From Schmidtea polychroa (lineage: Eukaryota): a stretch of 64,000 nt of DNA. The DNA lies in the NCBI GenBank assembly GCA_044892525.1, contig CM097885.1, positions 19,780,001 to 19,844,000 of the forward strand, written 5' to 3'. The notes beneath the pieces were generated by a model that had not been told where the DNA came from, did not search any database, and saw nothing but the letters and a program-made list of their open reading frames with translations. Both the position numbers and the translations under genes were made by a program. Positions 486 to 55,200 of this stretch are shown piece by piece (the first letter of the stretch is position 1; every line of letters begins with the position of its first letter).

Positions 486-1651
<1,166 letters not shown>

Positions 1652-1712
1652 TACAGCAAGAAGATTTAAAATTAAATTTAATGTCGGGCAATGAAGGATT
1701 AGCACCCATTGT

Positions 1713-2258
1713 TTATGATTGATTTCCTACAACTCCACCTAATAATGATAATGCCAGAGGTATCAATGCACCAATAAATCCACCTTGTTGTTTATATATA
1801 ATTTTACTCATTTGCTTACGAATTTTATTATTTACTAAAGATAACAATGGTTTCCTATGTTTGCTCAATAAATGCTTTTTTGATTTACTGATTTTAATTT
1901 TGCCTTTGACTACTTTAAGTATAATATTGAGTAAATCATCGACAACAAAATTTGGGAATGATTGCAATATATTCATTCTTTTCATACTCGGGGCCTTTAA
2001 CAATGCATTAAAAAATGGAAAACTGCGATGATTTTTAACTACTTTTTTACTGATTTTACGTTTACTGGTTTTATGTTTACTGGTTTTACGTTTAGGTTTA
2101 GGATTTTTCGAAATAAGATTCATTGCAGAAAAATTTTCAGTAACAAGTTTTTTAGATGGTGTATAACTAGTTGTTGGTGGAACTTTTGGAACTTTAATAC
2201 TCTTTCTAATACTTTTTCTTAATTTCCTAATATTTTTCACCCTTGCTTTTAGAAACAT
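1713..2258 (-). CDS. Basic virion core protein with pX/cupiennin-like C-terminal peptide
   Basis: Very Lys/Arg-rich; ends QQGG|FIGALIPLALSLLGG, resembling an adenain cleavage site followed by an amphipathic helix as in adenovirus pX. Confidence 0.7.
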   Translation of the reverse strand: MFLKARVKNIRKLRKSIRKSIKVPKVPPTTSYTPSKKLVTENFSAMNLISKNPKPKRKTSKHKTSKRKISKKVVKNHRSFPFFNALLKAPSMKRMNILQSFPNFVVDDLLNIILKVVKGKIKISKSKKHLLSKHRKPLLSLVNNKIRKQMSKIIYKQQGGFIGALIPLALSLLGGVVGNQS

Positions 2259-2276
2259 TATTATTCATAGAGGTTT

Positions 2277-2903
2277 TCAACTTTGTTTATAAACCATGGC
2301 ACCTTTTGGGTTGAAAATATCTGTTTTTACTCGTAAATCATCGGGACATTGTTGTGTGAAATCAAGAAATATATATCCATGAGGTATTTTTGTAGCATCT
2401 TGAAATGCACTGATAAGAAAATTACGATTGTTAGGGTATGCTTGACGTGCAAGAAAATCAATCACTGTTGCATCTCTAGGATTCTTGAAAATAACTAAAT
2501 ATTGTATATTTAAATTACGTGTTCGATGTGCACCACCTTGATGAAATAGATTTTGTGTTATGAAAATAACTGTTACACCAACATGTCTGCTGATTTTAGT
2601 AAATAAATTATTAAAATCCTTTTCTTTATTAGCTTCTTGATACAAATCATCGATAATAATGACATCACCTTTCTTTAATCGGCTGGACCAGTTTTTATCG
2701 AATCCCTTTACTATTTTCATGTTTTTTAATTTACAGAAACTTGATTGAGTTAATCCATGTTCTTCATCAGCACCCCTATGCCAATAAATCCTGTTGAATT
2801 TTGATTTGAATAAATTTGATTTTAGTAATTTACAAACAAATAATGTTTTTCCACTACCACTCGGACCAACGATTTGGTATACTGCATCATTTCTTAATTC
2901 CAT
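2277..2903 (-). CDS. Polinton A32/FtsK-like packaging ATPase
   Basis: Walker A GPSGSGKT, Walker B IIIDD, SRH, ITQNLF, FKNPRD, PHGYIFLD motifs. Confidence 0.93.
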   Translation of the reverse strand: MELRNDAVYQIVGPSGSGKTLFVCKLLKSNLFKSKFNRIYWHRGADEEHGLTQSSFCKLKNMKIVKGFDKNWSSRLKKGDVIIIDDLYQEANKEKDFNNLFTKISRHVGVTVIFITQNLFHQGGAHRTRNLNIQYLVIFKNPRDATVIDFLARQAYPNNRNFLISAFQDATKIPHGYIFLDFTQQCPDDLRVKTDIFNPKGAMVYKQS

Positions 2904-3002
2904 TTCAAAAATTTTATAAATGTGTATTTGTTTATATTCGATGATTTAATGAACTCGTGCTCAATTTGTATATAAAGACTAACTTTCATAAATGATTTAA
3001 TA

Positions 3003-3440
3003 ATGTTAGCAAATATAAATTATCGAGGAAATTTTGATGTATCGAATATGAGGTTTCCACCAGGGAAACCTCAGCAAATTATCGATAGAAGCGGGAAATA
3101 CCCGATAATATTTTTCAAGACTGGTAAATGTAGAATCATGGGATGTAAGAAACCCTTGGATATTAATAAATTACAATATCGAATAAATAATATTAAAATC
3201 CAATCAATTACCATTACTATGGATATGGGACATAGTATCAATCTATATAACATGTCGAAAAAATGTGATTGTATGTTTGAACCGGAATTGTTTCCGGCAC
3301 TAAGACTAATAAAATATAACCCTATATGTGTCAACGTGTTTGCTAGTGGAAAGGTTGTCATGCTGGGGTTGAGAAATTTGGAGTATAGGGAATTTGTTGA
3401 CAATGTTCGAAATGAGATAATTTCATTGGTCAATTTCTAA
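3003..3440 (+). CDS. TATA-binding-protein-like protein
   Basis: Two TBP repeats: IIFFKTGKCRIMGCK and FEPELFPAL...VNVFASGKVVMLG (compare TBP YEPELFPGL...LIFVSGKVVLTG). TATATAAA at 2969-2976. Confidence 0.85.
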   Translation: MLANINYRGNFDVSNMRFPPGKPQQIIDRSGKYPIIFFKTGKCRIMGCKKPLDINKLQYRINNIKIQSITITMDMGHSINLYNMSKKCDCMFEPELFPALRLIKYNPICVNVFASGKVVMLGLRNLEYREFVDNVRNEIISLVNF

Positions 3441-7094: not shown

Positions 7095-9570
7095 GACTTT
7101 CTATAACGTTTTTGCCTCTTCGGTATTCGCTCTAAAATTTATCACCCGGATGCTAGCGATTACATCCACCATCAATGTACTTCTGAAAATCGAACCATCG
7201 TCCTCAAGTCACAGACACTAGTGATAGATAATCTCTCTCTGACGGGTGGGTAAACATTTTACAACAAATTTACCAGTAGTACTCACTTTGAGCTCTAGAC
7301 AATTATCGCCAACGATAACAGTACGCGACGACCTGTAGTAGCCAGCTCATCATCAGCCGACGGGAATAGCCGATAATGTTAAAAATGAAATGATAACTTA
7401 TCGTTTCGTTGATAGGAAATGTCGAATGAATGAGTTAACAATCATTGTCCTGAGTCAACATCTTGAAAAGAAATTAGATAACAAAGTCAACTTACCCAGT
7501 GCTCTACCATGTTGTCAGTCACTTGAGATGATAAACCTGATTTCGATCTGTCTACTGCTGCTTGTCGGAAAAATCAGTTACGTAATCTATCCTACCCTGT
7601 CATAATACACACACACACTTCAGCCACTCATACATAATGCCGGTGTACAAATGAACCCACGAACTGGGCAGAACATGTTGGTGATACAACGATCACGTGA
7701 GACATGCATGTCTTCAGAAATGGTGATACGATAAGTAGGAGCGAGGAATCGGAGTTCCTCAACTCAACTAGCTACATAATCTCTTTCCATCGTACAGACA
7801 GTTACTCGAGATAACAGTTAATTCATAATTACAACTGCGACCAGTAGGATTAACACCCCCAACTAGCTAATCATAACATACAACCACGAATGAATATCTC
7901 TATGACAACCAAATACAGCGCGTAATTCAAATTAATTAGAACTCTAATTTGGTATTCAATTTTCTAACATCAATTTTACTTGTTTTATTTTATTGGCGTA
8001 GATGAAAATATGAGTGGCCATGGGTCGCCAGGGATTATAATTTCGTTTTGAAATTTTATGTATATTTATCTCGATAAAAAATCCGAGACAGTGACGGGGA
8101 AGGGGAGAGTAAAGATCTGATGAGGGGGTGAGGCCTAGATAGGGGGTATTTCTTAAGTACATCCCCCGTTCTCTTTTCACAAACGATCACATGAAGGAAT
8201 TGGAATGTTTGTAATGGAATGACTGTGAATGAGGATGGATGATGAAGTCTGTGGGTTGTTGTTGAGCGAATGATGGATGAATGGCCAACATTGTGTTCTA
8301 AAAATCGACTAACCCATTCTAACAAATGTTTCTGAATCGATATAAAACTAATTTGACTTTTTAGATGACGACATCGTCCAACCATACTAAAGAACTCCGT
8401 CCTTGCTTCTCCTGCGCCGATAAAAACGCGGACATCGCGCAGCTCCATCTGTATATCGGGGCTCTAAAGAAGCTAATTGACCTTTACGAAGGGACGTGGT
8501 TCTCCCCACCACAAATGAAGGAGGAGAGAAGCAAAATACTGCGACTAGAGCATTGCAGGGATAGCCTGCTGGAGGAGAGTCGTTGCCAACGACTCACAAT
8601 CAAAGCCCAGTCGGAAGCCCTCCACAAGGTCTATACGGAGGTAGAATCAGCCAAGCGGGTACGGGAATTTCCCGTCGTGGATGGGACAAACGTTTTCCCA
8701 CTCCACCACCAGTTATCCCGACCGTCTGCCACGAGTTGCCAAGGACATAGCTCTCATTTACCACCCGTACCAGCCCCAATCTTGTCAGGTTATTTGCCAA
8801 TGGCCGGCGGCTCGTCTGATCCCATTCTGGCCCCAGTTCTTGTGGCCTCGGTCAATACCCCGGTAGTGGAAGCTAATCAGCCATCCCGGAAACGAAGACG
8901 CCCAACTCGAGCGGCAAAGAACCAAAAGCGCAGAGAGGCGATGGCAGCCCTAGAAGCGTCGCTATCGGCGGCGAAGTCGACGATCCAGGAAATCTCTTCT
9001 ACTCATACTGTCCCCTCCAAGGAAGTTTTTCGAGTGGTACCGGCCGAAGGTATCAAATTCGTCTCAGACCACCGTCTACCGGTAGATATCGATGAAATAC
9101 TCGCGGAAGGAGACGTTTTCTAATAATACGACTTGCATCGATCCCGATTCTTTCGATCAAATGACAAATCCACCTGTACATTTAGACTAGCTAATTTTAC
9201 ATTCGTATATGTGCATTTGACTTGCATGCTGACAGTTTATGACTATAGAGTATCATTTTTGTGTTGAGCTTAATATAATTGAGTGATTTTCTTCGTTGGA
9301 TACTAATAGTTGTCGACAGGTATGACTGAGTGATGTGAGTGGATAATGAACGTGATGTAGAGTGTAGACAAATCTTATCGATGGTCGTTCCCTTGGACCA
9401 GGATCGGACCAAGTTACCTATGGGAATACGGGTAAGTCCTTCTGAGGCACCTTAGAACCTGAACCGTGAAGGGGTTAGGAGTAGTCTTAAGGCAGAGGCT
9501 CACCTGCTAACCTATTCCGACCCGTGTGGGCAGTACCAACGTGAAACATCACCACGGGCTCATGCGTGGG
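7095..9570 (-). mobile_element. Diverged, truncated relative of the giant-LTR family (copy D); boundaries approximate
   Basis: Contains the EGTWFSP ORF and a diverged terminal module (CCGTGAA, GCTCAC, CAGTACCAACGT, ACGGG) at ~9445-9570. Confidence 0.55.
8365..9123 (+). CDS. Coiled-coil/basic hypothetical protein of the giant-LTR family
   Basis: 252-aa ORF; EGTWFSP motif shared with the ORF at 49752-50147; NLS-like RKRRRP. Confidence 0.6.
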   Translation: MTTSSNHTKELRPCFSCADKNADIAQLHLYIGALKKLIDLYEGTWFSPPQMKEERSKILRLEHCRDSLLEESRCQRLTIKAQSEALHKVYTEVESAKRVREFPVVDGTNVFPLHHQLSRPSATSCQGHSSHLPPVPAPILSGYLPMAGGSSDPILAPVLVASVNTPVVEANQPSRKRRRPTRAAKNQKRREAMAALEASLSAAKSTIQEISSTHTVPSKEVFRVVPAEGIKFVSDHRLPVDIDEILAEGDVF

Positions 9571-9579
9571 AATATTCGG

Positions 9580-11992
9580 ATAATCATTATATCATATTTT
9601 GTGACAATTATTCATTTTTAGTGAACTTGTTGTGCATATCAAAGCTTCAATTATAGCATTTGTCACGACTGAGATAATGAGGCCATCCCCATGGAAGGCC
9701 GAACCGGTCAATTTGACCGGTATCTTGAAACACACAAGAAAGTCACACATAATCATCTTATATACTAGAAAATATAAAACCAAATATAATTTACACACAA
9801 CCGAAGCATTTAACAGTCATTTGGGAATGTTTTCCACAGTAAACTTTACTACATACATGGCATATAGCTCCGGATTTGTTATCACAATGAGGAGCAGAAC
9901 AAGTTTTTCGCTTCTTTAATTTTGGTTGTTCAGAACAGAGTTCAACAGAGATGGGACTTGCTGTTCGACGGCTTTTGAACTCCTCACAAAGAGATGTAGC
10001 TAATTCAAAAATAAAATCCCTTCTTTTTATAGTTGATCCCGTAGCATCTTTGAAAATAACATGAGCGTTGAGAGCTGCTTTATCAAGCAAATCATAGAAA
10101 GTAGCGACTGGCCATCTTGCTGTTGCGGCTTTACTGCTGTATAAACGCAACATGCTATCCATGGTATCTACAGCTGTCTTATCTTTGTTATAAAAGTGTA
10201 TCATTTCAGGCTTTCTCTTTTCGTCAGATCTCACACTAGCAGTAGAATGGAATGTTGACATGACAATGTCTTTCTTGTCCGATTTGCCTTGATAGGAAAC
10301 AGTGACAGTGTTTTGACACGATAAATGAGTCGATTCAAAAAGAGGCTTTTTCTCCAAGTGAGCTGATGATAAAAAGCGTGAATTTAATCTTACAGTACCA
10401 ACCAATGTTGTTCGATTTACAAGGAGATGTTCAGCTAGTGAGAGACTTGTAAAGAAATTGTCAGTGCAGACATTGTATCCTTTATTGAAAAATGGCTCCA
10501 TTAGTTTCCTTACTACAAAATCACCCAGTCGTAATCCACAGCGTTCGTTTCTATCGTGAGCCCCTAAATATGGCATTTGATTGATTACAAATTTGGTTTT
10601 GACATCACTGAGAATCCAGTATTTGATACCGAATTTATCAGGCTTATTTGGCATAAATTGGATGAAGCAACACCTATTTTTAGCGGCAAAAGTTGCTCGT
10701 CGACAGTAAGGAAGGGATTAGGAGTATAAACTTGAAGACAGTTTGAAACAAACAAGTCAAATATTTCACGAAAATGGGCATATTTATCTTGTTCTACTCT
10801 TTGACGTCGAGAACATTGTTCATCAAAACGAAGAAAGCGCAGTATCTCACGGAAACGGTTCCGAGACATGACTTCTCTGAAGTAAGGAGATCCAAATTGA
10901 GATGACCAGATTGAATTGATAGAATGTCGGCGAAAGCCTAACACACCACGGAGATACAGCAATCCAAGAAAAGCATCTAATTCTTGTAGACTGATACACC
11001 AGTCTGACGAAGCTTCTTTTCCTTTCATAATTGTGTATTTTTGAATTAACTTCAGCATTCCCTCAGAGACTATCAAGCGCCAAGCGCTCAGGAGTGAGTC
11101 AATTTTGCGCTTTGCAAAAGCTTTCACACCAGGTGTTCCACTAAAAATATTGTGCGCAGGGAATCTACCAACACTAATAGCGTGATTGTTTTCTACTCGA
11201 TTCCAAAGAGTGCCATCCCTGCTAGATAAAAGCTGATTTTCTAATGAAGAAATTGAGCTATTGACTGACTCATTGTCACTTTCTAACGAACTTCGATTAT
11301 CATCAGAGTTCCATTCATGTAACTCTTCGTCAGAATCATTTCTTTCGGGCTCATCATCACTTCCCATAGGCTGATCTTCATCTTCGGAGAGAGCAGCGTC
11401 AATATTCCATAGCTTCTGTAAAGCACGTTGAGCAGCAATTCTTTTAGTTGGCATATTTGATTCTAAAATAATGATAAAAACTCCGTCAGTAAAATAAGAA
11501 ACGTCAAATTTATTATTGGATTCTAATGAAAACACGGTTTTATAATGTTTGTTATCCCAAGAAGTTCAAAGATTTTCTATAACAATTATTAGATATTGTC
11601 TTATGACATTTCGTTAAGTTTTTCGTTTGATTCTTTTAATTTACCAAATTTCAAAACTTAGAACTCTTAATGCTTGCTTAATTACACTTTTAATAAGCAC
11701 TATCTTTGAATAAAAGCAAGAGAATATTTATAAACAAGAAATGTTTAAAATAGTGTAGCTTTGTGTCAGCTAAACAAATATTTTTATTTCATTGTTGTAA
11801 GTAGTTTAATAAATTAACTACTGTTAGAATAAAAATAGTTAAATTTTGAAAGCGTGTTAGTAGCACAAAGAAAGTATTGCTAGATGAGTTGCATCATAGA
11901 AATCTCAGCATGAAAATAAGGAGCATATGTGCACCGGTCAAATTGACCGGTTTGGCCTTCCAAGGTATAAAATATTTCCGGCCGTCCTAGTG
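9580..11992 (-). mobile_element. piggyBac DNA transposon 1, left end missing
   Basis: Ends CCTAGTG-TTAA (11993-11996). Internal palindromic repeat ACCGGTCAA(A/T)TTGACCGGT at ~9703 and ~11933. No matching TTAA-CACTAG found on the left. Confidence 0.85.
9791..11454 (-). pseudogene. piggyBac transposase (PGBD4-like), frameshift near 10680
   Basis: MSRNRF, TVDEQL, MPNKPDKFGIK, TDNFFTS, AVDTMD and C-terminal Cys-rich domain, split over two frames. Confidence 0.92.
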
Positions 11993-12222: not shown

Positions 12223-13895
12223 TATTGGGCTAGAACTGATTTCTAAACCCAAAGTTAGGAATGGGACGAAATGTGCCAATACACAACACGCATACCCAGC
12301 ATTAAGTTTACTTAAATAAAAATATATAAAACACCAAGTAAACAATGATAATAGAGAGATAATATACCCAAAAATAAAACATCTGAATTAAAAATAAAAT
12401 AAAACACGAGCAAGAAGTTACATGAAAACTTACTCAAATATAACCGAAAGACATAAAACAACAAAAAACAAGTTCGAATAAAGGGATTAGTAAAAATTAA
12501 AAAAGAAAATTTAAGAAAATCTCCATAAAATCTTACGTAAAGAAAATTACATCGATATTTTGAATAAAAATCCAGAACAATTCAAAAAAAAAGGCGAAAT
12601 CCATCATGACCGCCAAACGACCCCATAAAATTTATAAAAAATAAATATTTTAGTTTAAAAAATAAATATTTTAGAAAAGAAATCATAAAAAACAATTTAA
12701 AAATAAGAAATAGATTAAATTTAGCATGGAATGTTCTGGAAATGCTGAAATCCATCATGGAGGCAACTTTAATAAAAAATAATTTAAAATTAAATTTCAA
12801 AAATAAAAACAAAAATTCTTACTGAAAAATCACCATCAAAATCGATAAAAATTAAAAATCGAATGTTCGAGAATTAAAATAATCCGAATTTGTTTTACTG
12901 CATTATAGAAAAATTTGTGAAAATAAATATAACAATATAAATTACCTAACTGAACGAGTGGAAATGTGGATTGTGCCGCTGATGACTACCGCAACTGAGG
13001 AAGAAGCAAGCATTGCGAAAACAAAGTTCGACGCTAATGCTTCTTTCTCAGCGAGGTCGAATACAGTGACAATTTCATAAATAATTACTTAAAAATTGAA
13101 ATTACAAATAAATATTAAAATTTGAATTCACCGCTTTGGGGTGATAAATAAATGACTGTTACATCATCATTTAAAACAAGTATTTAAGTCAAAGATATAC
13201 TAATTTAATTTATTAATTTAAGTTAAAGATTTATTACTTTAATTTATTATAAAATTTAAATTTTTCCGATGGATTTTTCATTTCCATGATTAAAGAACTA
13301 AAATAAATCCTGGTTTTACGCTAAATTAATATAAGATTAAAATTTAGACTAGTTGGAAATTCTTGTGGAATGGTGAGATAAGGCGGTCTAAGTATTTTGT
13401 CAGGATAGGTTGGCAGAGTGGACCAGACGCGATGAGCATTTAAACCAGAATTAAGTAGGGCAATGGGGCAACTTTAGGTAACAAATCTCATTTAGATGTC
13501 AGACGCAAGGAGATCCAAGAAAGACGGAAAAGTCGGCCCATCTTCAGGGAAGATAGGACAGATTGATCCATGAATAATGATGATCGATACGAATGGTGGG
13601 GTGAGCTGACACAGTGGGAGAATACAAGATACGTTAACAAGTTATCGGGAGCACTATTTGACGACAGGGACCGTATAAAACGGACACAAACCTTCTAACG
13701 GTAGTCCGTGAACCCAAAGGAGTGCCCAGCAATTATAGTGCGGATAGCGCGCTCACTTTTTGCGAGCACTCACCCTCTTGATACATTACCAACGTTGATC
13801 ACTCAACGGGTATTAAGTGGTAAAACAAGATTGTATTCTGGGTTACGCTGGAAACAGCACGAATAGGTAAAATGTATGCTTACTGTAACCCACCA
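12223..13895 (-). mobile_element. Probable solo LTR of giant-LTR family, copy A (1.67 kb, internally deleted)
   Basis: Minus strand TGGTGGG...CCCAATA; flanks AATT/GATT (4-bp TSD with one mismatch); splits the BEL protease frame. Confidence 0.8.
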
Positions 13896-15369
13896 GATTG
13901 ATGTAGCTTACTGAGCTTTCATCATCTAACAGTGCATTTACTTTTATTTTCTTGTTCCCATTTTCCAGGTAAATTGGAATTGTTCTTAAACTAAGGTAAG
14001 GTCTTAGGTTTTTCTCGTTCATCACTTTCTAGGTCAACATCGTGTTGTTACCTTTTTCACTCTCCTCACTGAGTTGTCTTTCATGTAATAATTCGTTGTG
14101 TCTTTGCTTACATCCGGTAACCTTGCAGAAAGATTCTTTACGACATTCCTTGGCCATTTGATTTCTTTTGAAACAATTCCTGCACAGTTTCTTTTCTTCG
14201 ATGACTTTCTTCCTTTTTGAAATTGTGAGTTGCTTGAACTTGTCACATTGGTCTAGGTAATGTTGACCACCACATTTTACATACTCTAAGCTAAAGAGGT
14301 TAGAGTTATTCGCCTGTATGACCGTTCCACTTTTAAATCTGCCATCTGGTTGCCTTGTAAAATGCGTCCGACCTCCTGGATTGAAGCTTTCTCTTCCTCT
14401 AGACACACCTTCTACTCTTGGCCCATCATAAGTCCTGGTGCTTGGTTGAATCCCATACACGACCTCGTAAGTAGATCTTAGGATCTCCGCTTCTTGTTGT
14501 ATCCATCTTCTCAAATCCTCTATTGTCTCCCGCAATTCCTTTTCTATTTTGTCTTTCTTCCATTTATAAACAAGATTTGTAGTTAACTTGCCTAAACACT
14601 TTTAAAAAAGACATCCAGTCTTTAACTCGGATTCTTTCCCAGTGGATTTAAATCGAACGGTGACTGTTTCTAATAATCCAACAAATAAGTCTAAATCCTT
14701 CAAATCTCCTTCTCGAATTGACCTGAACTTGTCCATCTCCTCTAACATTGATAAATATATCCTTTCATCCCCACCATATCGCCTATCCAACTTCTCTTTT
14801 GCCATTTATTAGATCTTTGCCGAATATCCTAGATTTTCAATTAACTTTAATGGCTCTCCGTGAAGGTACTTGTGCAGGTGAAACATCTTTTCAAACTCAT
14901 CACCTTCCGCTTCGTCAACACACGCAGTAAAAGCTGATTTCCATGGTTCGTACTCTTTCATCTTGCCTTCAAAAACAGGTATTGTAACTTTTTGTAGACT
15001 TTCTAGTTTTCTTTTACGCACTGAATTATTTTTCTTGATTGTATCATCATTCTCATTTTCTTTCTCTTCCTTAAAAGATTGATTTGCTTTCTTTTCCATC
15101 AGTGCCCCAATTATTTGATGTTTTTCCTCAATCTCTTGCAGGTCTTTATCTAAGATTGCAGTGATATCCAATCTTTGCAATTTTTTACTAATCGTTCTTA
15201 GATCCCCTAATTCTTCATCTAGACTCTCCTTTTGATCTTCATATTCATCCAACCATTCACTGACTTCTTTCCCATTTATATCATTGAGAATCTTGTTTCT
15301 CAATCTCGTTAATTTTCCTTTTTTCATTCTCTTTTTCCACAGTCCTTCTTCTAAAATCTTTTCGTCATT

Positions 15370-15597
15370 GCCACCGCACAACCTGAGTGACAAATGAGGT
15401 GTCGAACCTACTTGTATGCTATAGTCGTTCAATATTCTTTTATTTTCTAATTACTTTCCTGCGTAGACTAACATTTGATAATTTACCGGAATTCCTTCTT
15501 TGTCTTGAATTTTTTCTTTTACATTTTCAATCGTGTCATTCAATTCAACGTCAAGAGTAATTGTCTTACCAGTAAGAGTTTTGATAAATATTTGCTT
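15370..15597 (-). pseudogene. Ubiquitin-like domain in frame with BEL Gag
   Basis: 76 codons (K)[17 protein letters not shown]...KIQDKEGIP...AGK*LENKRILNDYSIQ..S..HL.LRLCGG continuing directly into Gag. Confidence 0.9.
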
Positions 15598-15930
15598 CCT
15601 ACTTCTCAATCGAAACTCTCCTTCTTCCCCTATTCGACAACAACAAGCCTCAAAACCCATTACTCCGCTCGCCCTCAACCTTGACTTAGCTCGCAAAAAC
15701 GCTGAGCTTCTTATTTTATTTTTATTTAAACGGTTCCCCTGGCTACCCACTTTAAAAAAGTGCTGGGTCCCATAGCAGCACTTTTTCACGCTTGATAGGG
15801 AAGGGAGGATGGTTAATTTTACATATATAAATTCAAAATAAAATGAAAATAGTTTAAAGGAAACCATAATTCACCATTGATCAGCCAAGGCTGTCTCGAC
15901 TGCACCATTGGTGCGTAGCCCCCTAAAGGG

Positions 15931-19997: not shown

Positions 19998-20096
19998 GTG
20001 CACACATTCACAATGTCAATTCCTGGTTGGTGTATAAATTGTAAGCGTATTGATTATTATTTAAATCCTTAACATTGAAATGGACTCTCTGTAAAC

Positions 20097-22136
20097 ATGA
20101 ACCTTTCTGATTTTCAGTTCACCAGCTCATTGGAAGCTCCTGTTTATTTGTTAACTGCTTTAAACGAATTGTATGGAATATTTCAAAATGTTTCTACCAC
20201 TTATAGTGAAGACGGACACTTAGTTGAAAATGGTATAAAACTGAATTGTAGTCGAAAGTCTCCAGCCACAGAATATGCTGAATATGCCATTGGTACATAT
20301 TATGTTATTTGTATTATTATATTCTCCATGATGGTCAAACGAGTATCTTATAGACGGAATCAGTGTAACGGCAAGCCAGGACTTGTATTGCCAATGAACA
20401 TGTTAAACAGTCACAATTACATCGTCGAATATACGTTGATTTTTCTCTCTCTATCCGAAGCAATTTACGCTTACATTTTCGGATCGAAGGTAGAAGTTGG
20501 TCAAATAATTCCAATTGGTAATTTTTTTATTAAACTATTTATTGTTATCGTAATTTCAATTCTTTCTTATCCAATTTTTGCCGCCATTACAAGTCGCCAT
20601 TTGTTCGGCTATATTACTGTTATGCTGGCGTCAGTTGCTACTTTTTTTGTCGGGGTTTCAGCAACATATACCTATTGTTTCTGTTTAGTTGGCGTGAAAA
20701 TCGTTCCGTTTTTATTTGCAGCCGTCCTCTACAGTTCGATAGAAATATCTATTGTTGGGATGTTTGTTTGGAAAACTTTTTGTCACATACGAGAAAACGG
20801 ATTTAGAAATCGGGAATTAAACTGCAAATTGTCACCAGATAAGGAAAATTCGAAAATTTATGTTAGAAAATTGTTGAATGAAAATTTAGACTTGAAGTCA
20901 TTGAAAACAGAAAATCCGACAGAAGAAAAAGAAGAAGAATTGAAATTTATTGTCAGCCATTTTAAATGCGACGAATTGAAAAGTAAAATGAAAGAAAAGA
21001 TTTATAGACCGATTCCTGGATTCCGGTTACCACCACGATTGATGATTGGGATGTTTGTGGGGTTGTATTTTGCCTATAGGATTTTCATAGATAATATTTT
21101 GGGGCTGACTCCAATCGCGTGGAAGCTGCTAGATGTAATTAATAAAAAATATTTAACTACACAAACAAATATTAGTCGATCTTTTTACTTAATTTGGAGC
21201 AACTATTCTCTTTATTCAAAGTTGGAAATGCAAAATTCCTTTCGATATCTAACTTTCTCTTACACTCATCTTTTGATTTCCTGTCTTCTTGCAGCAATTT
21301 TTATCGCATTTATTAATTCCATTATTCAGTCCTTATTACTGTTGAGAAATTACCGACTTCATTTTCATCGAATAACGAGAAAGGGGTTCTCAACTTTCAT
21401 GGACATCAAACAAGCCCCTCCTATCTACGATTTGGTACTCGGATATGTTCGATTCAGTGGTTATCAGGCAGCGTATACTTTGTGGGGAATTTTAGTCGTG
21501 ACGTTTTTTATGTTTATAGTTCTTTTTATTGTAATTGGTATAGTTCTGTGGCCTTTATTTTATATTGAAAATTCTTGGCCTAGGACACTTCTGATTAACT
21601 ATGGTCCGGTATTAGTCGTGACGATTATTTTTAATATTATTCAAACAACGATTGTGAAATATTTATTTATCATGGAGAAAGGAACGATTATGGAAGTGAA
21701 CAATCGAAGATCATTTATAATTTATACGCATTGTGCATTTTTTCTAAATGCTATGATGGGAATTTTCAATTCTGTCAAACGTGTCATCATCTGGGTATTT
21801 TCTGGAGTGTTTTGCTTTTCTAGAATAGATTTTAGTTCTTTGCCTGAATACTTGCACGGATTCGACAGTGGATACATGGCATATGTAGGATTTGTTTACA
21901 CAGAACAATATCATTTTAATCCTATTTTACTATGCTTTACGGATCTTCTTGTGGAAACGAAAAAAGAAAAATATATTAATACAAATGAAGATCAACTCGA
22001 CTTATTAAATAATGACAAAGGACGCACGAGGTTTAGAAATTTGTGGCGTGTCGCTGTTACTTTAATAAACAACCACCAGTTGTTATTAGAGAGGAAAAAT
22101 ATTTTGAAAAATAATGTTGTTTGTGATGGAGAATGA
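20097..22136 (+). CDS. STRA6-like / RBP-receptor family multi-pass membrane protein
   Basis: 679-aa uninterrupted ORF with many hydrophobic segments. RID..LP.....D.GY..Y.G...E..H.NP.L..F and R.RN.W..A.TL.NN..L...RK motifs of the STRA6 family. Confidence 0.88.
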   Translation: MNLSDFQFTSSLEAPVYLLTALNELYGIFQNVSTTYSEDGHLVENGIKLNCSRKSPATEYAEYAIGTYYVICIIIFSMMVKRVSYRRNQCNGKPGLVLPMNMLNSHNYIVEYTLIFLSLSEAIYAYIFGSKVEVGQIIPIGNFFIKLFIVIVISILSYPIFAAITSRHLFGYITVMLASVATFFVGVSATYTYCFCLVGVKIVPFLFAAVLYSSIEISIVGMFVWKTFCHIRENGFRNRELNCKLSPDKENSKIYVRKLLNENLDLKSLKTENPTEEKEEELKFIVSHFKCDELKSKMKEKIYRPIPGFRLPPRLMIGMFVGLYFAYRIFIDNILGLTPIAWKLLDVINKKYLTTQTNISRSFYLIWSNYSLYSKLEMQNSFRYLTFSYTHLLISCLLAAIFIAFINSIIQSLLLLRNYRLHFHRITRKGFSTFMDIKQAPPIYDLVLGYVRFSGYQAAYTLWGILVVTFFMFIVLFIVIGIVLWPLFYIENSWPRTLLINYGPVLVVTIIFNIIQTTIVKYLFIMEKGTIMEVNNRRSFIIYTHCAFFLNAMMGIFNSVKRVIIWVFSGVFCFSRIDFSSLPEYLHGFDSGYMAYVGFVYTEQYHFNPILLCFTDLLVETKKEKYINTNEDQLDLLNNDKGRTRFRNLWRVAVTLINNHQLLLERKNILKNNVVCDGE

Positions 22137-24109: not shown

Positions 24110-25210
24110 TTTTTAGAACGATGCCACATATTTTTAGAACTATTACGTAACCAATGCCTAATATTTTTAGAACTATTACGTAATTTTTTAAAATTAAGTG
24201 ATCTGGCGGGCTCACACTTTTTTTCATCCCAAAAATTAATGTTCCCATTATCCGAATTTATTGGACGATACCTCATCTTAAAGCTCAGTCCAAGACCTTT
24301 CGAATGAGCCATAGAAGGTATCATCATTATTATTAACAAAGAGAATGACTCACCCAACGATGTCTAATATTTTTAGAACGATGCCTAATATTTTTCGAAC
24401 TATTGCGTAATCGATGCCTAATATTTTTAGAACGATGTCTAATATTTTTAGAATGGTGCCTCTTATTTTTAGAACTATTACGTAACCGACGCCTAATATT
24501 TTTAGAACTATTACGTAATTTTTTTAAATTAAGTGATCTGGCGGGCTCACACTTTTTTTCATCCCAAAAATTAATGTTCTCGTCAACAAATTTTATTAAC
24601 CGATACCTCATCTTAAAGCTCAGTCCAAGACCTTTCGAATGAGCTATAGGTATCTTATATATCTTTAATAGTTTTAATGTTATTAACATTTGATGACCAC
24701 CATCTTTTCAAAGTTAAATTATTATTATTTTCCAAAATATTATTAAGTGATCTGGCGGGCTCACACTTTTTTTCATCCCAAAAATTAATGTTCCCATTAT
24801 CCGAATTTATTGGACGATACCTCAACTTAAAGCTCAGTCCAAGACCTTTCGAATGATCCATAGAAGGTATCATCATCATTATTATTAACAAAGAGAATGA
24901 CTCACCCAATGACTCACCCAACGATGTCTAATATTTTTAGAACGATGCCTAATATTTTTAGAACGATGCCTAATATTTTAGAACGATGCCTAATATTTTT
25001 AGAACGATGCCTAATATTTTTAGAACTATTACGTAACCAATGTCACATATTTTTAGAACGATTATGTCATATTTTTAGAACGATGCCACATATTTTTAGA
25101 ATGATTACGTCATAATTTTAGAACGATGCCTAATATTTTTAGAATGATTACGTCATAATTTTAGAACGATGCCTAATATTTTTAGAATGGTGCCTCTTAA
25201 TTTTAGAACT
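24110..25210. repeat. Terminal arrays: ~21-bp TTTTAGAACGATGCCTAATATT units and three larger units with AAGTGATCTGGCGGGCTCACAC; mirrored at ~37655-38845
   Basis: Direct reading; accounts for the repetitive HRSKNIR ORFs. Confidence 0.9.
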
Positions 25211-25909
25211 AATAATTTTTGTTTTAATTATCGATTACATAATAATTTAATTTGTTTAAATCGTTGATTATTATTATTATTATTATAATTATAATTATTA
25301 TTATTATATACTCCTAGTCTATCCGACAAAATATTCTGTCCCCCTATGGGTACTGCACACAAGGGTACTACTCACACTCAACAAGTCACAAGGGTACTGT
25401 TCACAAAAGACAAAACTTTCTAAATTCTAAATATTATTCTTTAAATATACACTAAAATTTATTAACACATTCACATTCATCATCTCCACAGTTCATAACA
25501 TTTTCAACAACATGATCTATACAATCCCTATATACACACGGTTCAGTATCCGTAAATTCCTCCATAGGTTCATCAATTTCTTGAATGCTTTCCTCATCAT
25601 CTTGAGTGTTTTCTTCATCTGCTTCATCAAGGTCATTTATTTTTCAAAATATTATTATTTCCAAGGTCATTTATTTTTTCAAGGTCATTTATTTTTTCAA
25701 GGTCATTCCCAAGGTCATTTATTTTTCAAATTCATTTATTTTTTCAAGGTCGCGTGACTCATAAAGGTCATTTTTTTTCAAGGTCATTTTTTAATTTAAT
25801 TTTTTGTTTTAATTAAGTGATCATTAAATTTTTCAAGGTCATTTATTTTTTCAAAATATTATTTTTTCAAGGTCATTTATTTTTCAAGGTCATTTATTAT
25901 TATTATTAA

Positions 25910-25956
<47 letters not shown>

Positions 25957-26470: not shown

Positions 26471-26509
<39 letters not shown>

Positions 26510-26956: not shown

Positions 26957-26998
<42 letters not shown>

Positions 26999-29393: not shown

Positions 29394-29457
<64 letters not shown>

Positions 29458-29461
29458 TTAA

Positions 29462-29493
<32 letters not shown>

Positions 29494-29496
29494 TTA

Positions 29497-29587
<91 letters not shown>

Positions 29588-33889: not shown

Positions 33890-33999
<110 letters not shown>

Positions 34000-40283: not shown

Positions 40284-45232
<4,949 letters not shown>

Positions 45233-47238: not shown

Positions 47239-49751
47239 ATTTCTCTTAATAGATTCCAAACTTAACCGATCCCTCACCAAATGACCATAATTCTACCACT
47301 TTAAACATTAATATCCAACCGACTATATCCCCTTTAAATTTTTATATATTCTTTCAATCAACATAAAATTCACAAAAAATTATAGAAATCTACTTGAATA
47401 TTTCCTAAAACCAGCTAACATCAACTTTAAGCAATAAACAGTGAATTTAGGTACCCAATTTGACTAAATAATCATACAAATAAAATTATTAAAACTGAAG
47501 ACAACTCCATCAAATTCATAATTAAATTAATTTTAAAATATACAAATCAGTCAAATTATCACAAATCAAGATAAGAACTTTGATAAAAAATTATTTTAGT
47601 GGTAAGAATTATCATTGCAGCGTAAAATGGAAAGATAATTATTCTCTAAACAAGGAAATGGAGATAAAATTAACAATGAAATTATTAATCGCAAGTGGTA
47701 AGAATCTTCATTAAAATTTTGAGGTGTTTTCATTTGAGAATTGAATATTTCAATGATTTATTAAGATAATTTTAAATGATAAATAATAGACTATTAAAAT
47801 AAGTTTTAAAATAATTTTTAAATTAAAAAGACAAAAAAGGATAAATTTTAAATAAATAAGTTTTTAAAATAAGTTTTATTAGTAAATAATGTTTAAATAA
47901 ATACATTTTAAATATCGAAAATGTTAATAAATTGTTTTGAAAATATTTTATTCAAGGCTGAAAATTTGTTTGAAAATTATTATACAATATTTAATTAAAT
48001 AAATATTTGGAATTATGACGTTATATCTTGAACCTTATTTAAAAAATAATTTAGAAGATGTTCTAGCAGCATCTAATAAAGGTGAGGAAATAGAAACAGA
48101 ATTATTCATTGAACTTATTTATGAAAAAATGATAAATTAATAAACTCAAAAGAGTTACAATTTTCATTGAAAATTAATTCTTTACTTATTTAAAATTCTC
48201 ACTGGCCATATAATAGACCTTAAAATACTTTGGCTTTTTTAGCGAGAGTAGGATTCTATGTACAAAAACCTCTATGGTCAAAGACACCCCCTGACGATAG
48301 TGAGAATCCAAAAACCCCTCTACAGTAATGGTTTTTAAACGAGATTTGGATTTAATGTATAAAAAATCTTGGGACCAAAAATACTCCCTGACTATAGTGT
48401 GAATCCCATTCACCAACCAATTGACTCTAATTCTTGTCGAGTAATCTATATTAGGATGACAATTCATTAAACGCTACAAGTTAAAAATGGCGGTATAATG
48501 ATAATTATCACCATCTTCAAGGAGTAAAAAGTACACAGGTATACCATTTTTACCACCAATAACTTTCTATCTATGTATGATATCAAGATAAGGATGATGT
48601 GGCACATAATCACCATCATTATTATTGTCATCATCTATAATAATTATATCCTTGTATGAAAACACATTTATAGCAAGATTTAGAATTATTTTCCTCTCAA
48701 ATTTCGAAATGTTACACAGCTTCATGGAGCAATTAGCCATAGGGTAATAATAAATCTCACTCAAGAAACTAGTATACTTGCTCACTCTATTCCAATGATT
48801 TCTAATCTGGTCATGTTTTAATACATAAGGTACACTAAATATAAATCACATGTTGTCTGTATTCTTAATGTTCACTATGACAGTTTTATGCTTGGTATAT
48901 ATGTATGGCCCAATAATTGATTAATTGGACAAATTTTGTTCAAAATAAACCCAATTTCTTTAATTTTATTGATTCACCACACGCTGCCAAGATATGTAAA
49001 TTTAACAATTTTCTCGTTTAATTTTGCCACTATTTAATAAATAAAACGTCCGAGAAAACCTGTGCAATATTTGAAAAATATTTGTCCCTAATTTCCTCAG
49101 CGAGTCCGGTGGTTTAGATCTACAGATTATAGCCACAGGTCAACTGGTGCCTGGCGCGTGACTAGAGTGGTGATAATGGGGTTCTGAGAGATGCTAGCGG
49201 TCGTGTGAGGTATAGTGTTCAAATCTTTATGAGCTCTCTTTGGGGAGCCTCGCCATCCAAGTGGTGTGACGGAATGATGTCCAACTCCATCATAGCTGCG
49301 CATTGTGAAATCTGGACTACTAACTCTCAATTCGTGTACCATTGGTGGCGGATCACTAGTGGTGGGTTACTGATGGTTAAAGGTTTATTAGTTAGTGCTG
49401 TTACCAGCGTAACCCAGAATACAACATTCTTCTCCCGCTTGGTACCCGTTGAGTAATCAACGTTGGTACTGTACCAAGGGGTTGAGTACTCGCAAGAAGT
49501 GAGCGCATCAAGGCACTATAATTGTCGAGCACTCTATGGGTTCACGGACTACCGTTAGAAGGTGTGTGTCCGATTTCTCAGGTCCCTTATCAAAATTGTT
49601 CTCCCAAACTCTCGCGCAAACTCTCACTTCTCAGTCAATCACAAAATATCTTGGATATTATTTTAATACTACAAAATATTTATTATTTTCATACTACAAC
49701 AATTATACAAATCATACTACAAATATATATAGATCAACATTTCGCAACAGT

Positions 49752-50222
49752 TCAGATCGGCTTGTTGGTGGGGCAAACCGGTCCCGTCGTAGACACTTGC
49801 GCTGAAATTGTTTGCCGTTCGTACTCGGCCAACCTGGCCTTCTTCAGTTTCTCCCGAATGTTCCGTCCAAGCCGCTTTCGCTTAAGCTTACTTTCAGCAG
49901 CTGGGGGATATATGGTTGCGAGTTCAACGGCCAGTGGCCGTATTTGTCTTGCCACGGCCTCGTGCACCAACTGCTCATTTCGCTCGGTTTCCAGCGCCCG
50001 CACCTGCAATTTCAGGGCGCGGATCTCCATCTGGTCTTGTGCGGCCTGTGTCTTCAGCTGGAGGATCTGGGTTGTTTTCCTCTTCATTGCTTCGGGACTA
50101 AACCAGGTCCCCTCGAAATCCCGACATTTTCCATTCAACTTGTCCACCCGGATTCAGAGTTCGTCGGTTTGCTGCTGGGCCTGCTCACGATCCTTGCGTA
50201 GGTTTTCCATCAATTTATACAC
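49752..50222 (-). pseudogene. EGTWFSP coiled-coil ORF in copy C (one in-frame TGA upstream of the motif)
   Basis: Acceptor-like TTTTAG then ..LMENLRKDREQAQQQTDEL*IRVDKLNGKCRDFEGTWFSP. Confidence 0.6.
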
Positions 50223-50494
50223 TAAAAGGAAAAAGCATTAGTTTCCATTACACCCAAACAGAAAGTTAAAACCAATGAATAGTAAAATTAATGAGTTGAT
50301 GTTAGCATTTCTACCGAAGTATCTTTATACTCCTCCATTTATCAAGTAATGCACAAAATAAAAGGAAAACACTTTATTTGAGAGTAAACACTCGACGTTT
50401 ACTAATATACACAAAAGTTTAAATCAAACACAACAACTGCCAATAGTGAGTTCATAAAAACAGGAGTTGTACAAGTTAACTGAATTGTCCACGA

Positions 50495-50794
50495 TCACAA
50501 TGGTTGTTTGCGGGGCCTCCCTCTCTTCCGCGGAGTTATCTCGGCGTCTTCGAGCTCCTCTAGGGATACCCCCTCTCGCTTGGCTCGAAGTTGCAGTTCC
50601 AGTTTCTTCAGCCGGCTCTGAGCGATTTCCACATCAACGGCCGCTTGATCTCTGGCCTCTCGGAGTACATTGTTCTCCGGCTCCGTTTTCACCCACGCCG
50701 GGGCATCCGGTTCCGGACCGCTTCTGATAACCGGACTAAAGTTGTCAAGGTCCAATCCACGATTCCAGTTAAGTAAGTTAAGTGCTTTTAACAC
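50495..50794 (-). CDS. Small coiled-coil protein with AT-hook in copy C
   Basis: TPRKRGRPRK AT-hook and a heptad-like region; start uncertain. Confidence 0.55.
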   Translation of the reverse strand: MLKALNLLNWNRGLDLDNFSPVIRSGPEPDAPAWVKTEPENNVLREARDQAAVDVEIAQSRLKKLELQLRAKREGVSLEELEDAEITPRKRGRPRKQPL

Positions 50795-52126
50795 GAAGAT
50801 TGAATTTAACTTAGCGATAATTTTTAATCAATTAAATTAAGAAGAAAAATTTTTTTATCTAATAGAAAAAATTAGTAACTAATAATTTAAATAAAGCCAT
50901 GGAATCTTGCTTTTTTAGTACTTTTTGTTTTGTTATAGTCATTTAACAGTATCTAAATTTTTCGTTGTTTTGTTGATGTAATTATAATTAATGATAAATA
51001 ATGAATTTCGAATCAATTTGTACTTTTGGTTAATTTTGCTATGATAAGGTAAAAAATTGAAAATATTAAATATTGATATCGTAAACTTGTTAATAACATT
51101 TCAGTAATATCAGTAGTCGGCCGCACTCCCACAACAATCACCATTGACCAACAACCTACCATGACATCCCGTCTGAGCAAGGATTGCTTGACAGCACCAA
51201 TGAGAAAATTCAAAGGTTTGCTTAGCAATCAAGTTTATTACCATTCAATGAGGTATGAAGGCTTGGTCGTCCCAAGGTCGGTTCCGCCCACTAATCGTCC
51301 TGGCGGAATTACCGACAATGATTACGTAGAAGAGACACAAGAAGTATAGTCGGCTATCCAACATTATTACATCAAAGCCATATGCAAGTCGTTGAACCAA
51401 TAAAAAAAACTGAAGGAATCATCCCGAGGCTTTCCCACCCCAGGGGATACATTTCATTACCTGTGCCCGCAGGACTTTGGCATGAATATGATTCGAAGAA
51501 ACCATGATGCTAATATATGGGGTGATTGGATTAATAAATGTAGTTTACAATTGAGTTCTTAGTCCTTTGATTTGATAATTTTGTCAGAATTTTAGTGATT
51601 AATAAATTTAGACTTCTTTTGATTTGGTTTTGAAATAATTTTAATAACTTTAACCAATTAGTAAATAATTTTAATAAATTGTTTCAGTAATTTTTTCTCT
51701 TCATACTATTACCCTAAAGGGTTGTGGTCATGGTACCGCATTGGGATCCGGACAGCTATTTTGTAGATTTATGGGGATATATCCAGAATCACGCATGTAT
51801 ACTTGTACCTTCACACACGCACACACACTTATATTATCCATATATACATATATATTCCCACATCAGTAATATAGAGTTCATTTTCCGGGGGGGGGTGTTA
51901 CTAAAAATAGAATTTAGTGATTTTCCGTACTTTTATTGGAAGATAGGGTCCCCGAAACTAAATTTAGAGATAAGGGAATCCCAAAATCAATAAGTTGTTT
52001 TATAATTTTATTTTTATGAAATAATTATTTAAAAATATAATAATAGTAATAACAATGGTAATAGTAATAATAATAGTAAGAATGATCATGGTACTAATAA
52101 CAATGCTAATATTAATAATAATAATG

Positions 52127-52247
<121 letters not shown>

Positions 52248-55200
52248 CGACCATACTAATAATAATATTAATAATAATGATGATAATAATAATAATGATA
52301 ACGATTATAATAGCAATAAGAAATATAATTATCTTCAATTTATAATTTATAATTTCAACAAAATATATGTTTTATTTCTAATTTTTAATGTCGTGTACTT
52401 AAAGGCAAGCTATTCTAGCTATTTACACTTTATATATTTATAGTTAAATATTAGTTGTAATCATTTTTAACTGGTATTGATGCTTCTTTATAGATTATAT
52501 TTATAATGCCGATTTACCTGGCATTATTTATATTCCCTACGATATAGTTAGAACTTATAATTACTTATAGTTTACATCCATAAACCTTTTATATATAACT
52601 AATTATAGTTTATAATTTTCAGAATTAATATACATATATAGTTAATAATTATGAGTTATATTTGTGATCAAGATTCATATACCACTATTTCTAATTTATA
52701 TTCTATAAAGTAAAATTTTACTATGACTATCGATATACTTCATATATAACATTTATAAGTTTGAGAATTTATGTTTTGAGAATTTATAACTTTAAGCTCG
52801 ATACGATTTATGTACAACGTTTATGATCTTTATAATTTATGGTTTTAAGATTAAAAAAGATTCTTTCATAATTAATTATGATTTAGATTTTTAGGCCCCA
52901 AAATTCATACCGAAATTTTATAAGATACATCTTCAAAGCCTATCTACCATTATTACTGGGTTACCTTTTCAAAGTTAACTACATATACCATCTATACATA
53001 ACTAGATTCATATTTTCTGATCCATATACACCTAAATTTGGTTTATTTCATAGTTAAGATTTATTCACATTGTTCATAGCTGAGGTTTTTAAGTTGGGAT
53101 AATTACACATTTATCGTTTATCTAATTATTTTCGATGTAGAAACCCTGAATTTTGTACTTAATTTTGAAGAGTTAAGTTTATCATATCTACATTTATATT
53201 TGAATTAGCCTGTTAAATTATACTTGAAATTACTTTTATGGGTCAACCAGCTACATGAGTGTGAGTGCAGAATTGTGTAAGTTTAGGTATGAGTTCTACT
53301 CAGATTAATATCTTAGTGTAGAGATGTTGTTCATGATTTTAAGTGTTGAAATTAATTGTGTATTAAGCAAAGGTCGGGAAGAATATTGCTTCCATGGCCC
53401 CACTGTGACCACTTTCACAACCTTAATGTTATGTGCTAAGTCAACCATTTACGGCTGACCTTTAATAAAAACAAAGAGTCAGACGGAGGGTTTCCTCGAC
53501 CTAACTCCATGGCGGGACCATGAAGTAGTTCGACCTCCGAAGGACCCGAACAAAAAGAGGACGATATAATAATAGATCGATATAATATTCATAATGCATG
53601 TACTATAAATTTTAAATAAATTGGATGCAGGACTGAACAACGACGCAGGAATACCAGTACGCCGTTGAACATTCGTACATCACTGGAGAAAATCAAAAGT
53701 AAGAAACATCAAAATATGCAATTACTTTAATTTTTCCTAAATAAACCATTACTACAATAAAAATAAAAAATAGATCCTCAATACAATAACAATGAAAAAT
53801 TAATCCATCAATGCAATTAAAAAAAAATTAAATCAACAATCCTTACTATTTGTGTCGGCAAGATTTTTCTCAAAAATTGGCATAAAATGGTGATTGATTA
53901 TGACCGAAACGTGTCGGTATATATACCTATTTTGTACACGTGTATGTATTGATGCATTAAAACAAACTCGAATTCTTTTTATTCCAGAATTTTCTATTTT
54001 GCGATTTTGCTATTTTTAATGGCAATTTTTGTGCCATAATTTTTGTTATTTTTAAATTTTTATTTTTTAATTATTTTTTGTTAATTCGACGTCCATGGTG
54101 GATTTGGAACGGTTCCAGAACATTCCATGTTAATTTTAATTTTATTTTTATTTTAACTGATGTTTTATGAATTTCTTTTTAAGATTTTTTATTTTTAATA
54201 CTAATTTATTTATTTTTTCTAACTTTGGTTGTTCTAGATGGCTTTTGTGATGGTCATCGCCATTTTATGGAATGTTCTGGGTTTTTCTGGAATTTTTTAC
54301 TGTTTTTACCGTCTTTAAGTTATTCGAGTCTGTTTTTTGTAACTCTGTGTTTATTTGGTTATTTTTGAGTTCTATTTTGCATAACTTCTTGCTTTTTGTA
54401 TAATTTTATTTAATTTCTGTGTTTATTATTTGTTGTTTTTTCCTTTAATTACTATTGTTTATTTGGTGTAGTTTTTAATATTTAGCTATACTTTTTGCTT
54501 TTTGCATGTTGTGTACCTACACCTTTCAGTCATAATTAGAAGTTTGGGTCTAGAAATCAGTTCTAGCCCAACACTAGTCATTGGGCTCTTCTTTCTGTGA
54601 TTATCTAATCACGATTTCTTTCTATCCGAGTGACACGTTGATAGAGTACCCGTGCTTTCTTCGGAGACACCAGATTGCTTCCATTAGGTTTATCCGCGCC
54701 TGCCGACGACTTATTTTACCGCGAAGGTTACGATTTTACTCCTCTAGCCGCGTGTCAACGGTCACCAAAGATGATATGTTAAAAACTGGTGCTGATCCTA
54801 TCTTTGGTTGTATTCTTAAAGAAAAGAGGCTCGAGTTATTATCGTTATCTTTCGATAAAACTTAACATTGGTTGATATCGATTATTTATGGTTATCGTCT
54901 TGTGTAGATTATTGGAAGGGGTTTTTTTATTTATTACCGTTTATAAATTTCATATGATCGTTTGTTCTTATGACTATCTATAGACTATTGTAATTATTAA
55001 TCATTTACTATTCTCGTCCATTCATTATTCGGACCTATTGTTATTATTTCCTAATTTTTCTGTTGCTCTTTATTTAGCTTTTCACTTAATGTCATTCAGT
55101 TTTCCTCGGGTTAAGAATGTTACTGAAAATATGGACTTTTGTTAATCTGGTGAAACCGTGGATTTAGTTTGCGACTGAGTCGGGTGTAATGAATTATTTT

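Follow-up and report, generated by a model that had tools for sequence, protein, structure and literature searches.

The window analyzed here, a 64,000 nt stretch of Schmidtea polychroa contig CM097885.1, carries three solo LTRs, A, B and C, each of which ends in a copy of the same module. LTR A (12223..13895, + strand) spans 1.67 kb from TATTGGG to CCCACCA, is much shorter than LTRs B, C and E1, and is flanked by AATT and GATT, a near-TSD. LTR B (40284..45232, + strand; 4.95 kb) and LTR C (49360..54573, − strand; 5.2 kb) are bordered by the TSDs GGTT and CTAG, respectively. The modules lie at 13678-13895 (+) in A, 45011-45232 (+) in B and 49360-49577 (−) in C, where an earlier sequence-only reading had placed them, and align over ~218 nt with pairwise identities of 79% (A/B), 84% (A/C) and 81% (B/C). 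When LTRs A, B, C and E1 are compared, identity averages 0.13-0.48 upstream and rises to mostly 0.7-0.9 (range 0.55-1.0) from 13680 on. The paired segments singled out in that reading were found as quoted: the outer stem is CTTGATAC/GTATCAAG in B, CTTGGTAC/GTACCAAG in C and TGGGC/GCTCA in D; it encloses the segment AGTACCAAC/ATTACCAAC and a CGTTGA/TCAACG hairpin with a single mismatch in B, and GGGTTAC/GTAACCC surrounds GCTG-GAAA-CAGC or GCTG-GTAA-CAGC. The copy A version of the outer stem is GTATTAAG, with one G-U pair. Compared with shuffled sequences, the folding of copy A scored z=-3.59 on the + strand and z=-2.15 on the − strand.

A diverged fourth copy, D, had also been listed. A module is indeed present there (9383..9588, + strand), with a family-specific upstream hairpin at 9383-9410 and a three-domain core at ~9428-9568, but it is part of a sister LTR family and breaks off at 9588, short of the terminal hairpin. 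The upstream hairpin of the D family shows compensatory changes, and a GGACC word upstream of the core is also found in the A/B/C and F123 families. A genome search with the module returned 4,047 first-look candidates, of which 40 were scored and 30 loci fetched. Similarity in the 30 loci ends at ...GTAACCCACCA, beyond which the flanking sequences are unrelated. A second module copy lies at most ~1.6 kb from the first in 4 of the 30 loci (L009, L010, L016, L025 and L005 are concerned); in L005 an LTR is inserted into a module, which hints at insertion of the elements into their own LTRs.

The module ends exactly at the LTR end, both in solo LTRs with 4-bp TSDs and in the two LTRs of full elements, as the proposed position at the end of a giant-LTR family implied. 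In two full elements it closes both 5.27-kb LTRs (TGTTGGG...CCCACCA), again with 4-bp TSDs. The module is the last ~218 nt, the 3′ end, of the LTRs of Burro-like giant Gypsy elements. These elements are 30-36 kb long overall with LTRs of 3.7-5.3 kb. The full element of the A/B/C family measures 35.8 kb, with LTRs of 5.17 kb, the TSD ATAA and a long polyprotein, and that of the F122 family 29.8 kb; the TSD of an F127 element is TAAT. Five LTR pairs are 99.8-100% identical, indicating that the families are young. In F122, Pfam detected Retrotrans_gag, zf-CCHC, Monjiviricetes_fusion (2e-71), RVP, RVT_1, RNase H and integrase domains, together with the accessory domains ankyrin and MATH, while BIR and BCL2 had no Pfam match in the six F122 pieces scanned. 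F122, from a sister family, has env in frame between gag and PR-RT-RH-IN, and the A/B/C element is 57% identical to F122 over the gag-env-PR-RT-RH-IN region. E1 has a gag-containing ORF and retains the module without env and pol; E1 is a deletion form of the 35.8-kb A/B/C-family element.

This layout matches the planarian Burro/GYPSM1 giant Gypsy-like elements described in part of PMC6431247, which share the giant size, the multi-kb LTRs, the order gag-CCHC, fusion-type env, PR, RT, RH, IN and ankyrin, and a MATH/TRAF ORF; the likeness is one of size and domain layout, compared by description only. The section on these elements in PMC6431247 gives no LTR RNA structure, PBS or PPT. A pattern of the module core matched 6,360 times in the genome, against 64 matches of the reversed control, and is a sensitive marker for these LTRs. 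The pattern of domains 1 and 2 matched 3,415 times (control, 0).

The module had been placed downstream of an antisense ORF, which turned out otherwise: the conserved ORF, recognized by a TWFSP motif, is sense and lies upstream of the module. A/B/C-type, D, F122, F127 and F151 LTRs all carry it in the same orientation as the module. In the D family it lies at 8365..9123 (+), encodes 252 aa with a basic stretch, RKRRRPTR, is preceded by a 3′ splice-acceptor-like sequence and has no Pfam match; a homologous piece with the TWFSP motif lies in copy C (49752..50153, −). The antisense frame of copy C contains stops in 20 of 30 matching loci, compared with 7 of 29 for the sense frame. The D-family ORF is 77% identical to that of the D-type F151 LTR and 34-40% identical to those of F122, F127 and C. 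No homologue was found in LTRs A, B, E1 and F123, 4 of the 10 LTRs compared, all of which keep the module.

The core shared among families consists of three domains, one of which was described in the sequence-only reading. Domain 1 (13680..13709, +) is formed by stem P1, a 4x1 internal loop, stem P2 and a 7-nt loop, TTCTAAC (13693-13699), which we take to be T-loop-like; across copies, P2 has 2-3 bp and the loop reads UUCUA(U/A)C. Domain 2 (13720..13771, +) is a stem, P3/P4, long and variable across copies, with near-invariant AG/CT pairs and a CAC bulge (13754-13756) that is presumably C-loop-like. Domain 3 (13774..13820, +) comprises stems P5 and P6 around an 8x1 internal loop (13785-13792), in which CCAA (13789-13792) is near-invariant. 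In total, ~25 near-invariant bases lie in compact loops, and conservation has a sharp 5′ edge at P1. The GGGTTAC/GNRA part is real but confined to the A/B/C family, and other families carry unrelated terminal hairpins.

For 36 cluster medoids aligned with MAFFT, the RNAalifold prediction contains 18 pairs, and 15 of these show two-sided changes. In the unadjusted MAFFT alignment, 90.1% of the cells of 20 named pairs can pair, compared with 68.9% after shuffling and 31-46% when the partners were slid. For covariation, we used our own script, a tree-aware G-test with two nulls (uniform and rate-preserving) in place of R-scape, on a 75-row alignment made from 199 matches at <95% identity, in which 26 rows were moved by one column to align GAC. 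Eleven of the 39 proposed pairs reached E<0.05 under both tree-based nulls, in a test where the structure was derived from the same sequences and all data come from one genome. The summed covariation score was 1036, whereas the null maxima were 234 and 173. Significant pairs fall in P1, P3, P4, P5 and P6; among the 39 pairs, those of P2, P3b and outer P5 did not covary significantly. A blind scan of all pairs gave no pair with E<0.05 in the 36 rows (best, 0.06). In the 75 rows, three pairs passed this threshold with the uniform null and one with the rate-preserving null, and all six top-ranking pairs lie inside the proposed helices. In this larger alignment, covariation between families is seen in each of the three domains.

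In comparisons of distant families, identity is 38-53% at four-fold sites in RT and 52-63% for stem letters; of the 12-16 pairs that changed, 9-12 can still form, and loop bases are better kept than stem bases. The proposed pairs contain 289 G-U cells and 119 A-C cells, an excess that points to the PBS/gag strand, although the + strand folds better than the − strand in only 25 of 36 representatives. The RNA structure proposed on the strand with the GNRA loop is supported, by covariation and strand bias, as a selected structure.

Behind each 5′ LTR, a spacer of 7-8 nt is followed by an 18-nt primer-binding site (PBS), TGGGGGCTCAGCCGGGAT, which has 1,044 exact matches in the genome (control, 0) and is exactly complementary to the 3′-terminal 15 nt of a genomic tRNA-Pro(TGG) gene with CCA added. 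When loci were picked by the PBS alone (70 loci, the first ones listed among the 1,044, from at least five LTR families), 64, 69 and 67 of them carried the motifs of domains 1, 2 and 3, respectively. At its last base, the PBS has T in 1,044 copies and A in 19, and never C or G; the corresponding tRNA position is T in the one CGG gene read and A in the UGG gene and the two AGG genes read. As the last base matches isoacceptor genes in this way, the PBS appears, from these sequences, to be copied from the primer tRNA. The letters just 3′ of the PBS vary strongly among near-identical copies. The genes for tRNA-Pro form long tandem arrays with one isoacceptor per array and hundreds of copies each (C1:130.90-130.95 Mb, C3:142.5 Mb and C4:90.1-91.3 Mb), and the tRNA-Pro(CGG) array alternates with tRNA-Arg(CCT).

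The 3′ end of the module differs by family. In the A/B/C family, the terminal domain (13831..13895, +) consists of TTGTAT, a TGGGTTAC/GTAACCCA stem, the GNRA hairpin at 13847-13858 and the LTR end CCA. The GNRA loop is kept in 79 of 84 fetched copies with an intact GCTG/CAGC stem, overlapping loci being counted more than once. TTGTAT is predicted to pair with the spacer behind a 5′ LTR. More generally, in all 69 foldable 5′ LTR ends (from 70 loci, one of which has no core), 4-7 spacer bases are predicted to pair with the LTR, and the predicted terminal helix stops 0-3 nt before the PBS. A spacer of the own type gains 3.8-7.8 kcal/mol and one of the other type 0-2.8, and 1-6.5% of shuffled spacers gain as much as the own spacer. 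Folding thus predicts a conserved helix that spans the LTR end up to the PBS, a U5 helix of the kind for which we take U5-IR stem to be the retroviral name. Since the spacer exists only behind the 5′ LTR, the terminal helix can form only in the 5′ leader. Within a family, the distance of the core from the PBS-linked helix, which it adjoins, hardly varies. The start of the core is 220-290 nt away from the PBS on the upstream side, and the core could also be a separate element.

We consider it likely that the module is a 5′-leader fold of the genomic RNA that positions the primer and starts reverse transcription. The module, at the presumed U5 end directly upstream of the PBS, would fold in the 5′ leader, where the terminal helix would hold the PBS at its base, next to domain 3. 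We infer that the invariant loops contact partners that are unchanged between families, which may be tRNA-Pro, RT or a host factor; the CCAA loop is a candidate anticodon contact, and Gag recognition for packaging may use the same surface. In support, RT is 89-99% identical between families and the LTR ORF 34-40%, while loop bases are kept better than stems. The retention of the module in pol-less E1 likewise counts in favor of this reading. A packaging or replication signal is the closest of the functions that the sequence-only reading had offered, but the adjoining PBS for tRNA-Pro went unnoticed there. A 3′-end stabilizer, another of its options, is not favored, as the partners of the terminal helix occur only behind the 5′ LTR; the three core domains may still act in this way and could also lie at the RNA 3′ end.

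Several other functions of the core were considered. It is unlikely that the core is a Rex-response-like element that binds a basic LTR-ORF protein or a host factor for RNA export or 3′-end formation, with only the terminal hairpin engaged in priming. The HTLV RxREs, according to parts of PMC3504254, are stem-loops of 226-254 nt that lie in U3/R or R/U5 and are recognized by an arginine-rich protein. In five families, the module is preceded by a sense ORF with a basic stretch, with an acceptor-like sequence before the ATG in D and F151, and no AATAAA or ATTAAA position is shared among 28 loci, which also suits such an element. However, between distant families this ORF shows no more than 34-40% identity, in contrast to the almost constant loop bases, LTRs A, B, E1 and F123 carry the module without an ORF homologue (supply in trans being possible), and the core keeps its near-fixed distance from the PBS-linked helix within each family.

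Still less probable is a core that serves mainly as a packaging or dimerization signal read by Gag, without a direct priming role. Gag-only derivatives that need helper proteins do keep the module, and Ty1 Gag binds a structured 5′ end, as reported in part of PMC4974528. Nevertheless, Gag of the A/B/C family is only 43-45% identical to that of other families and fits the invariant loops worse than RT or tRNA, and no conserved palindromic loop was seen by eye in the core alignments.

We regard as very improbable a self-cleaving ribozyme of unknown class that defines the RNA ends, comparable to the hammerheads in retrozyme LTRs. The compact near-invariant loops and the sharp conservation edge at P1 would suit a ribozyme, and LTR-borne hammerheads are on record. 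Against this, the comparison with Rfam that had been suggested gave no match in the module up to E=5 in the window or up to E=10 in 16 loci of other families, and descriptors of the hammerhead, twister, pistol, hairpin and HDV cores matched none of the 70 loci, so that the ribozyme option of the earlier reading finds no Rfam or descriptor match. No pseudoknot or cross-domain pair is among the significant pairs, and the elements carry a normal tRNA PBS. As for an HDV-like fold in particular, the P3/L3 look-alike in domain 1 leaves, by eye, no room for J1/2 and P2. Finally, it is hardly credible that conservation acts on the DNA, at a promoter or integrase site, with incidental hairpins, for although the domain 3 bases CCAAC recur in CCAACA, with which the LTRs of most families end, and are complementary to TGTTGG at the LTR start, the core shows compensatory changes, many G-U pairs and a strand bias, and stem letters differ between families at ~40% of positions, yet 9-12 of 12-16 changed pairs stay paired.

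The CCA end raised the idea of a tRNA-like 3′ end, by which we mean the mascRNA type, presumably a cloverleaf-like fold ending in CCA. This was rejected: ARAGORN found no gene in the window, the CCA end is limited to the A/B/C family and belongs to the LTR terminal inverted repeat, and 45 of 70 LTR ends are ACA on long hairpins. A loop E beside CCAA was also discarded, as AGTA is not invariant (71 of 105 loops) and the opposite strand is a single G.

By analogy, the structure is more probably than otherwise retroviral U5-PBS-like in its working, without a match to any Rfam family. It does not represent a new, independent RNA gene, and some structure in U5 is to be expected. The PBS segments of HIV-1 and MLV (PMC11181671, in part) and the Ty1 5′ structure (PMC4974528, in part) are precedents; MLV U5-PBS uses the same primer, tRNA-Pro. 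As in the retroviral leaders (HIV-1 A-rich loop, PAS and TLE; MLV), a structured U5 stands beside an 18-nt PBS, a helix, here predicted, includes the integrase site, and an unpaired loop is complementary to the primer anticodon loop. In contrast to them, the module has upstream three compact domains whose internal loops are invariant and which resemble nothing there in sequence or in Rfam, the LTR-PBS spacer is 7-8 nt, and the terminal hairpin would be needed to bring the candidate loop close from its place 110-170 nt upstream. The HTLV-1/2 Rex-response elements (PMC3504254, in part) resemble the module as LTR-borne structures of similar length with a basic protein encoded nearby, whereas the putative partner ORF here is poorly conserved and absent from several LTRs. 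Ty1 and Ty3, with 5′ structures, CYC pairing and a bipartite PBS, share structured cis elements near the PBS according to parts of PMC4974528 and PMC5371799; unlike the PBS of Ty3, that found here is a contiguous 18-mer apparently copied from the primer. They also differ in that no purine tract precedes the 3′ LTR here and end-to-end pairing is not significant. No description of this structure was found in the literature searched or in the parts of PMC8532177, PMC5371799 and PMC2664473 that we covered, although supplements of the Burro papers might describe LTR features. Detailed knowledge of structured primer-binding leaders exists for a few retroviruses and for the Ty elements of yeast; here, thousands of copies from many diverged families of a giant env-bearing element suffice for covariation to define such a leader and to pick out its least variable bases.

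As the core search pattern contained AGYWCCAAC, CCAA was recounted in 109 loci found without that pattern (70 with PBS-T, 19 with PBS-A and 20 by domains 1 and 2, most of the latter picked as unlisted by the core-pattern search). CCAA is present in 104 of 105 callable domain 3 loops. In sequence, it complements U33-G36 of tRNA-Pro(UGG), CCA being the cognate codon; this match is post hoc, and two other loop 4-mers also match tRNA-Pro elsewhere. The HIV-1 A-rich loop pairs with the anticodon of its primer, and this pairing supports primer selection, as described in part of PMC11181671. That CCAA reads the tRNA-Pro(UGG) anticodon as the HIV A-rich loop reads tRNA-Lys3 is a tentative idea, suggested by sequence complementarity, to which we give a one-in-several chance. 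A rival explanation for the conservation of CCAAC is that it mirrors the LTR end. A matching CCGA loop was looked for in the 19 copies whose PBS is of the CGG type and was not found; 18 have CCAA and one has no clear loop. By wobble rules, CCA is readable by UGG and IGG and not by CGG. The CGG-isoacceptor mark is rare, being found in 19 of 1,063 PBSs (1.8%), which fits the anticodon-reading idea; scarce tRNA-Pro(CGG) would account for the bias equally well. In the genome, a broad pattern of tRNA-Pro 3′ ends has 2,164 matches and a non-TGG pattern 614, all of them CGG among the 100 matches listed.

T-box Stem I presents a codon and a purine in an internal loop, and has a T-loop-like hairpin and pairing with the tRNA 3′ end. 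On sequence grounds, the module shares these traits: CCA-A in the internal loop of domain 3 is a codon plus a 3′ purine and fits the cognate anticodon, the domain 1 hairpin is T-loop-like, and the PBS would pair with the 3′ end of the tRNA, whereas no Rfam match, loop-E partner strand or antiterminator is found here. It is conceivable, at a similarly modest probability, that the module is a T-box-like tRNA-capture device of an animal retroelement, by which the RNA picks its own primer and disfavors tRNA-Pro(CGG). Domain 3 would offer the proline codon CCA-A to tRNA-Pro(UGG/IGG) for pairing with its anticodon, while domain 2 and the T-loop-like domain 1 would hold on to the body of the tRNA, whose 3′ end would reach the PBS by way of the terminal helix. 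The system allows us to ask whether primer choice by anticodon reading, as described for HIV-1, is also found in a Gypsy lineage of invertebrates.

Five families lack a purine tract before the 3′ LTR; their longest purine run in the last 60 nt is 3-6 nt. In place of a PPT, there is a conserved hairpin, AATTGCG-GGW-CGCAATT, with a GC near-palindrome, for instance 40 nt before L052:4079; the motif has 1,067 exact matches in the genome. Given its position, plus-strand priming in these elements may likewise depart from the usual scheme. Pairing of the PBS with this motif was not supported (p=0.05-0.16 per family vs shuffles), and neither was pairing of tRNA-Pro with it (p=0.16-0.81). One viral match to the motif looks like chance coding sequence, and no Gag relative was found in viral contigs. 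The core pattern had no match in viral contigs and 35 in metagenomes, none of them with the helices (mean 6.4 of 11 domain 3 pairs, maximum 9), compared with a mean of 10.7 of 11 for 199 genome matches, overlaps included.

Contigs from runs guessed to be RNA cover the module, and one spans the LTR end into the PBS; strand, ends and level are not given by contigs. The U3 of an E1/E2 subfamily LTR (L052:7400-8330, − strand) contains a decayed, intron-containing copy of the host gene MANF/ARMET in antisense (Pfam ARMET_N and ARMET_C). Spliced contigs at this region, present in three runs guessed to be RNA and absent from a fourth run, probably come from the host MANF gene and not from the LTR.

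Other features of the window include two piggyBac-type transposons (DDE_Tnp_1_7) at 9689-11965 and 57331-58572, the first with 33-nt terminal inverted repeats and a broken ORF. ORFs at 737-3440 match an integrase core, a Pox A32-like ATPase and TBP, a set that we take to suggest a Polinton/Maverick-like element. Broken ORFs with a ubiquitin domain adjoin LTR A (14029-15870, −). A nested inverted duplication of ~14 kb lies at 24184-38772 (27020-29190 vs 34277-36448, 96%), both arms of which have weak SRP-RNA-like Rfam matches (E=3e-4, far below the gathering score). An uninterrupted ORF of 685 aa at 20079-22136 (+) belongs to the retinol-binding protein receptor (STRA6-like) family.
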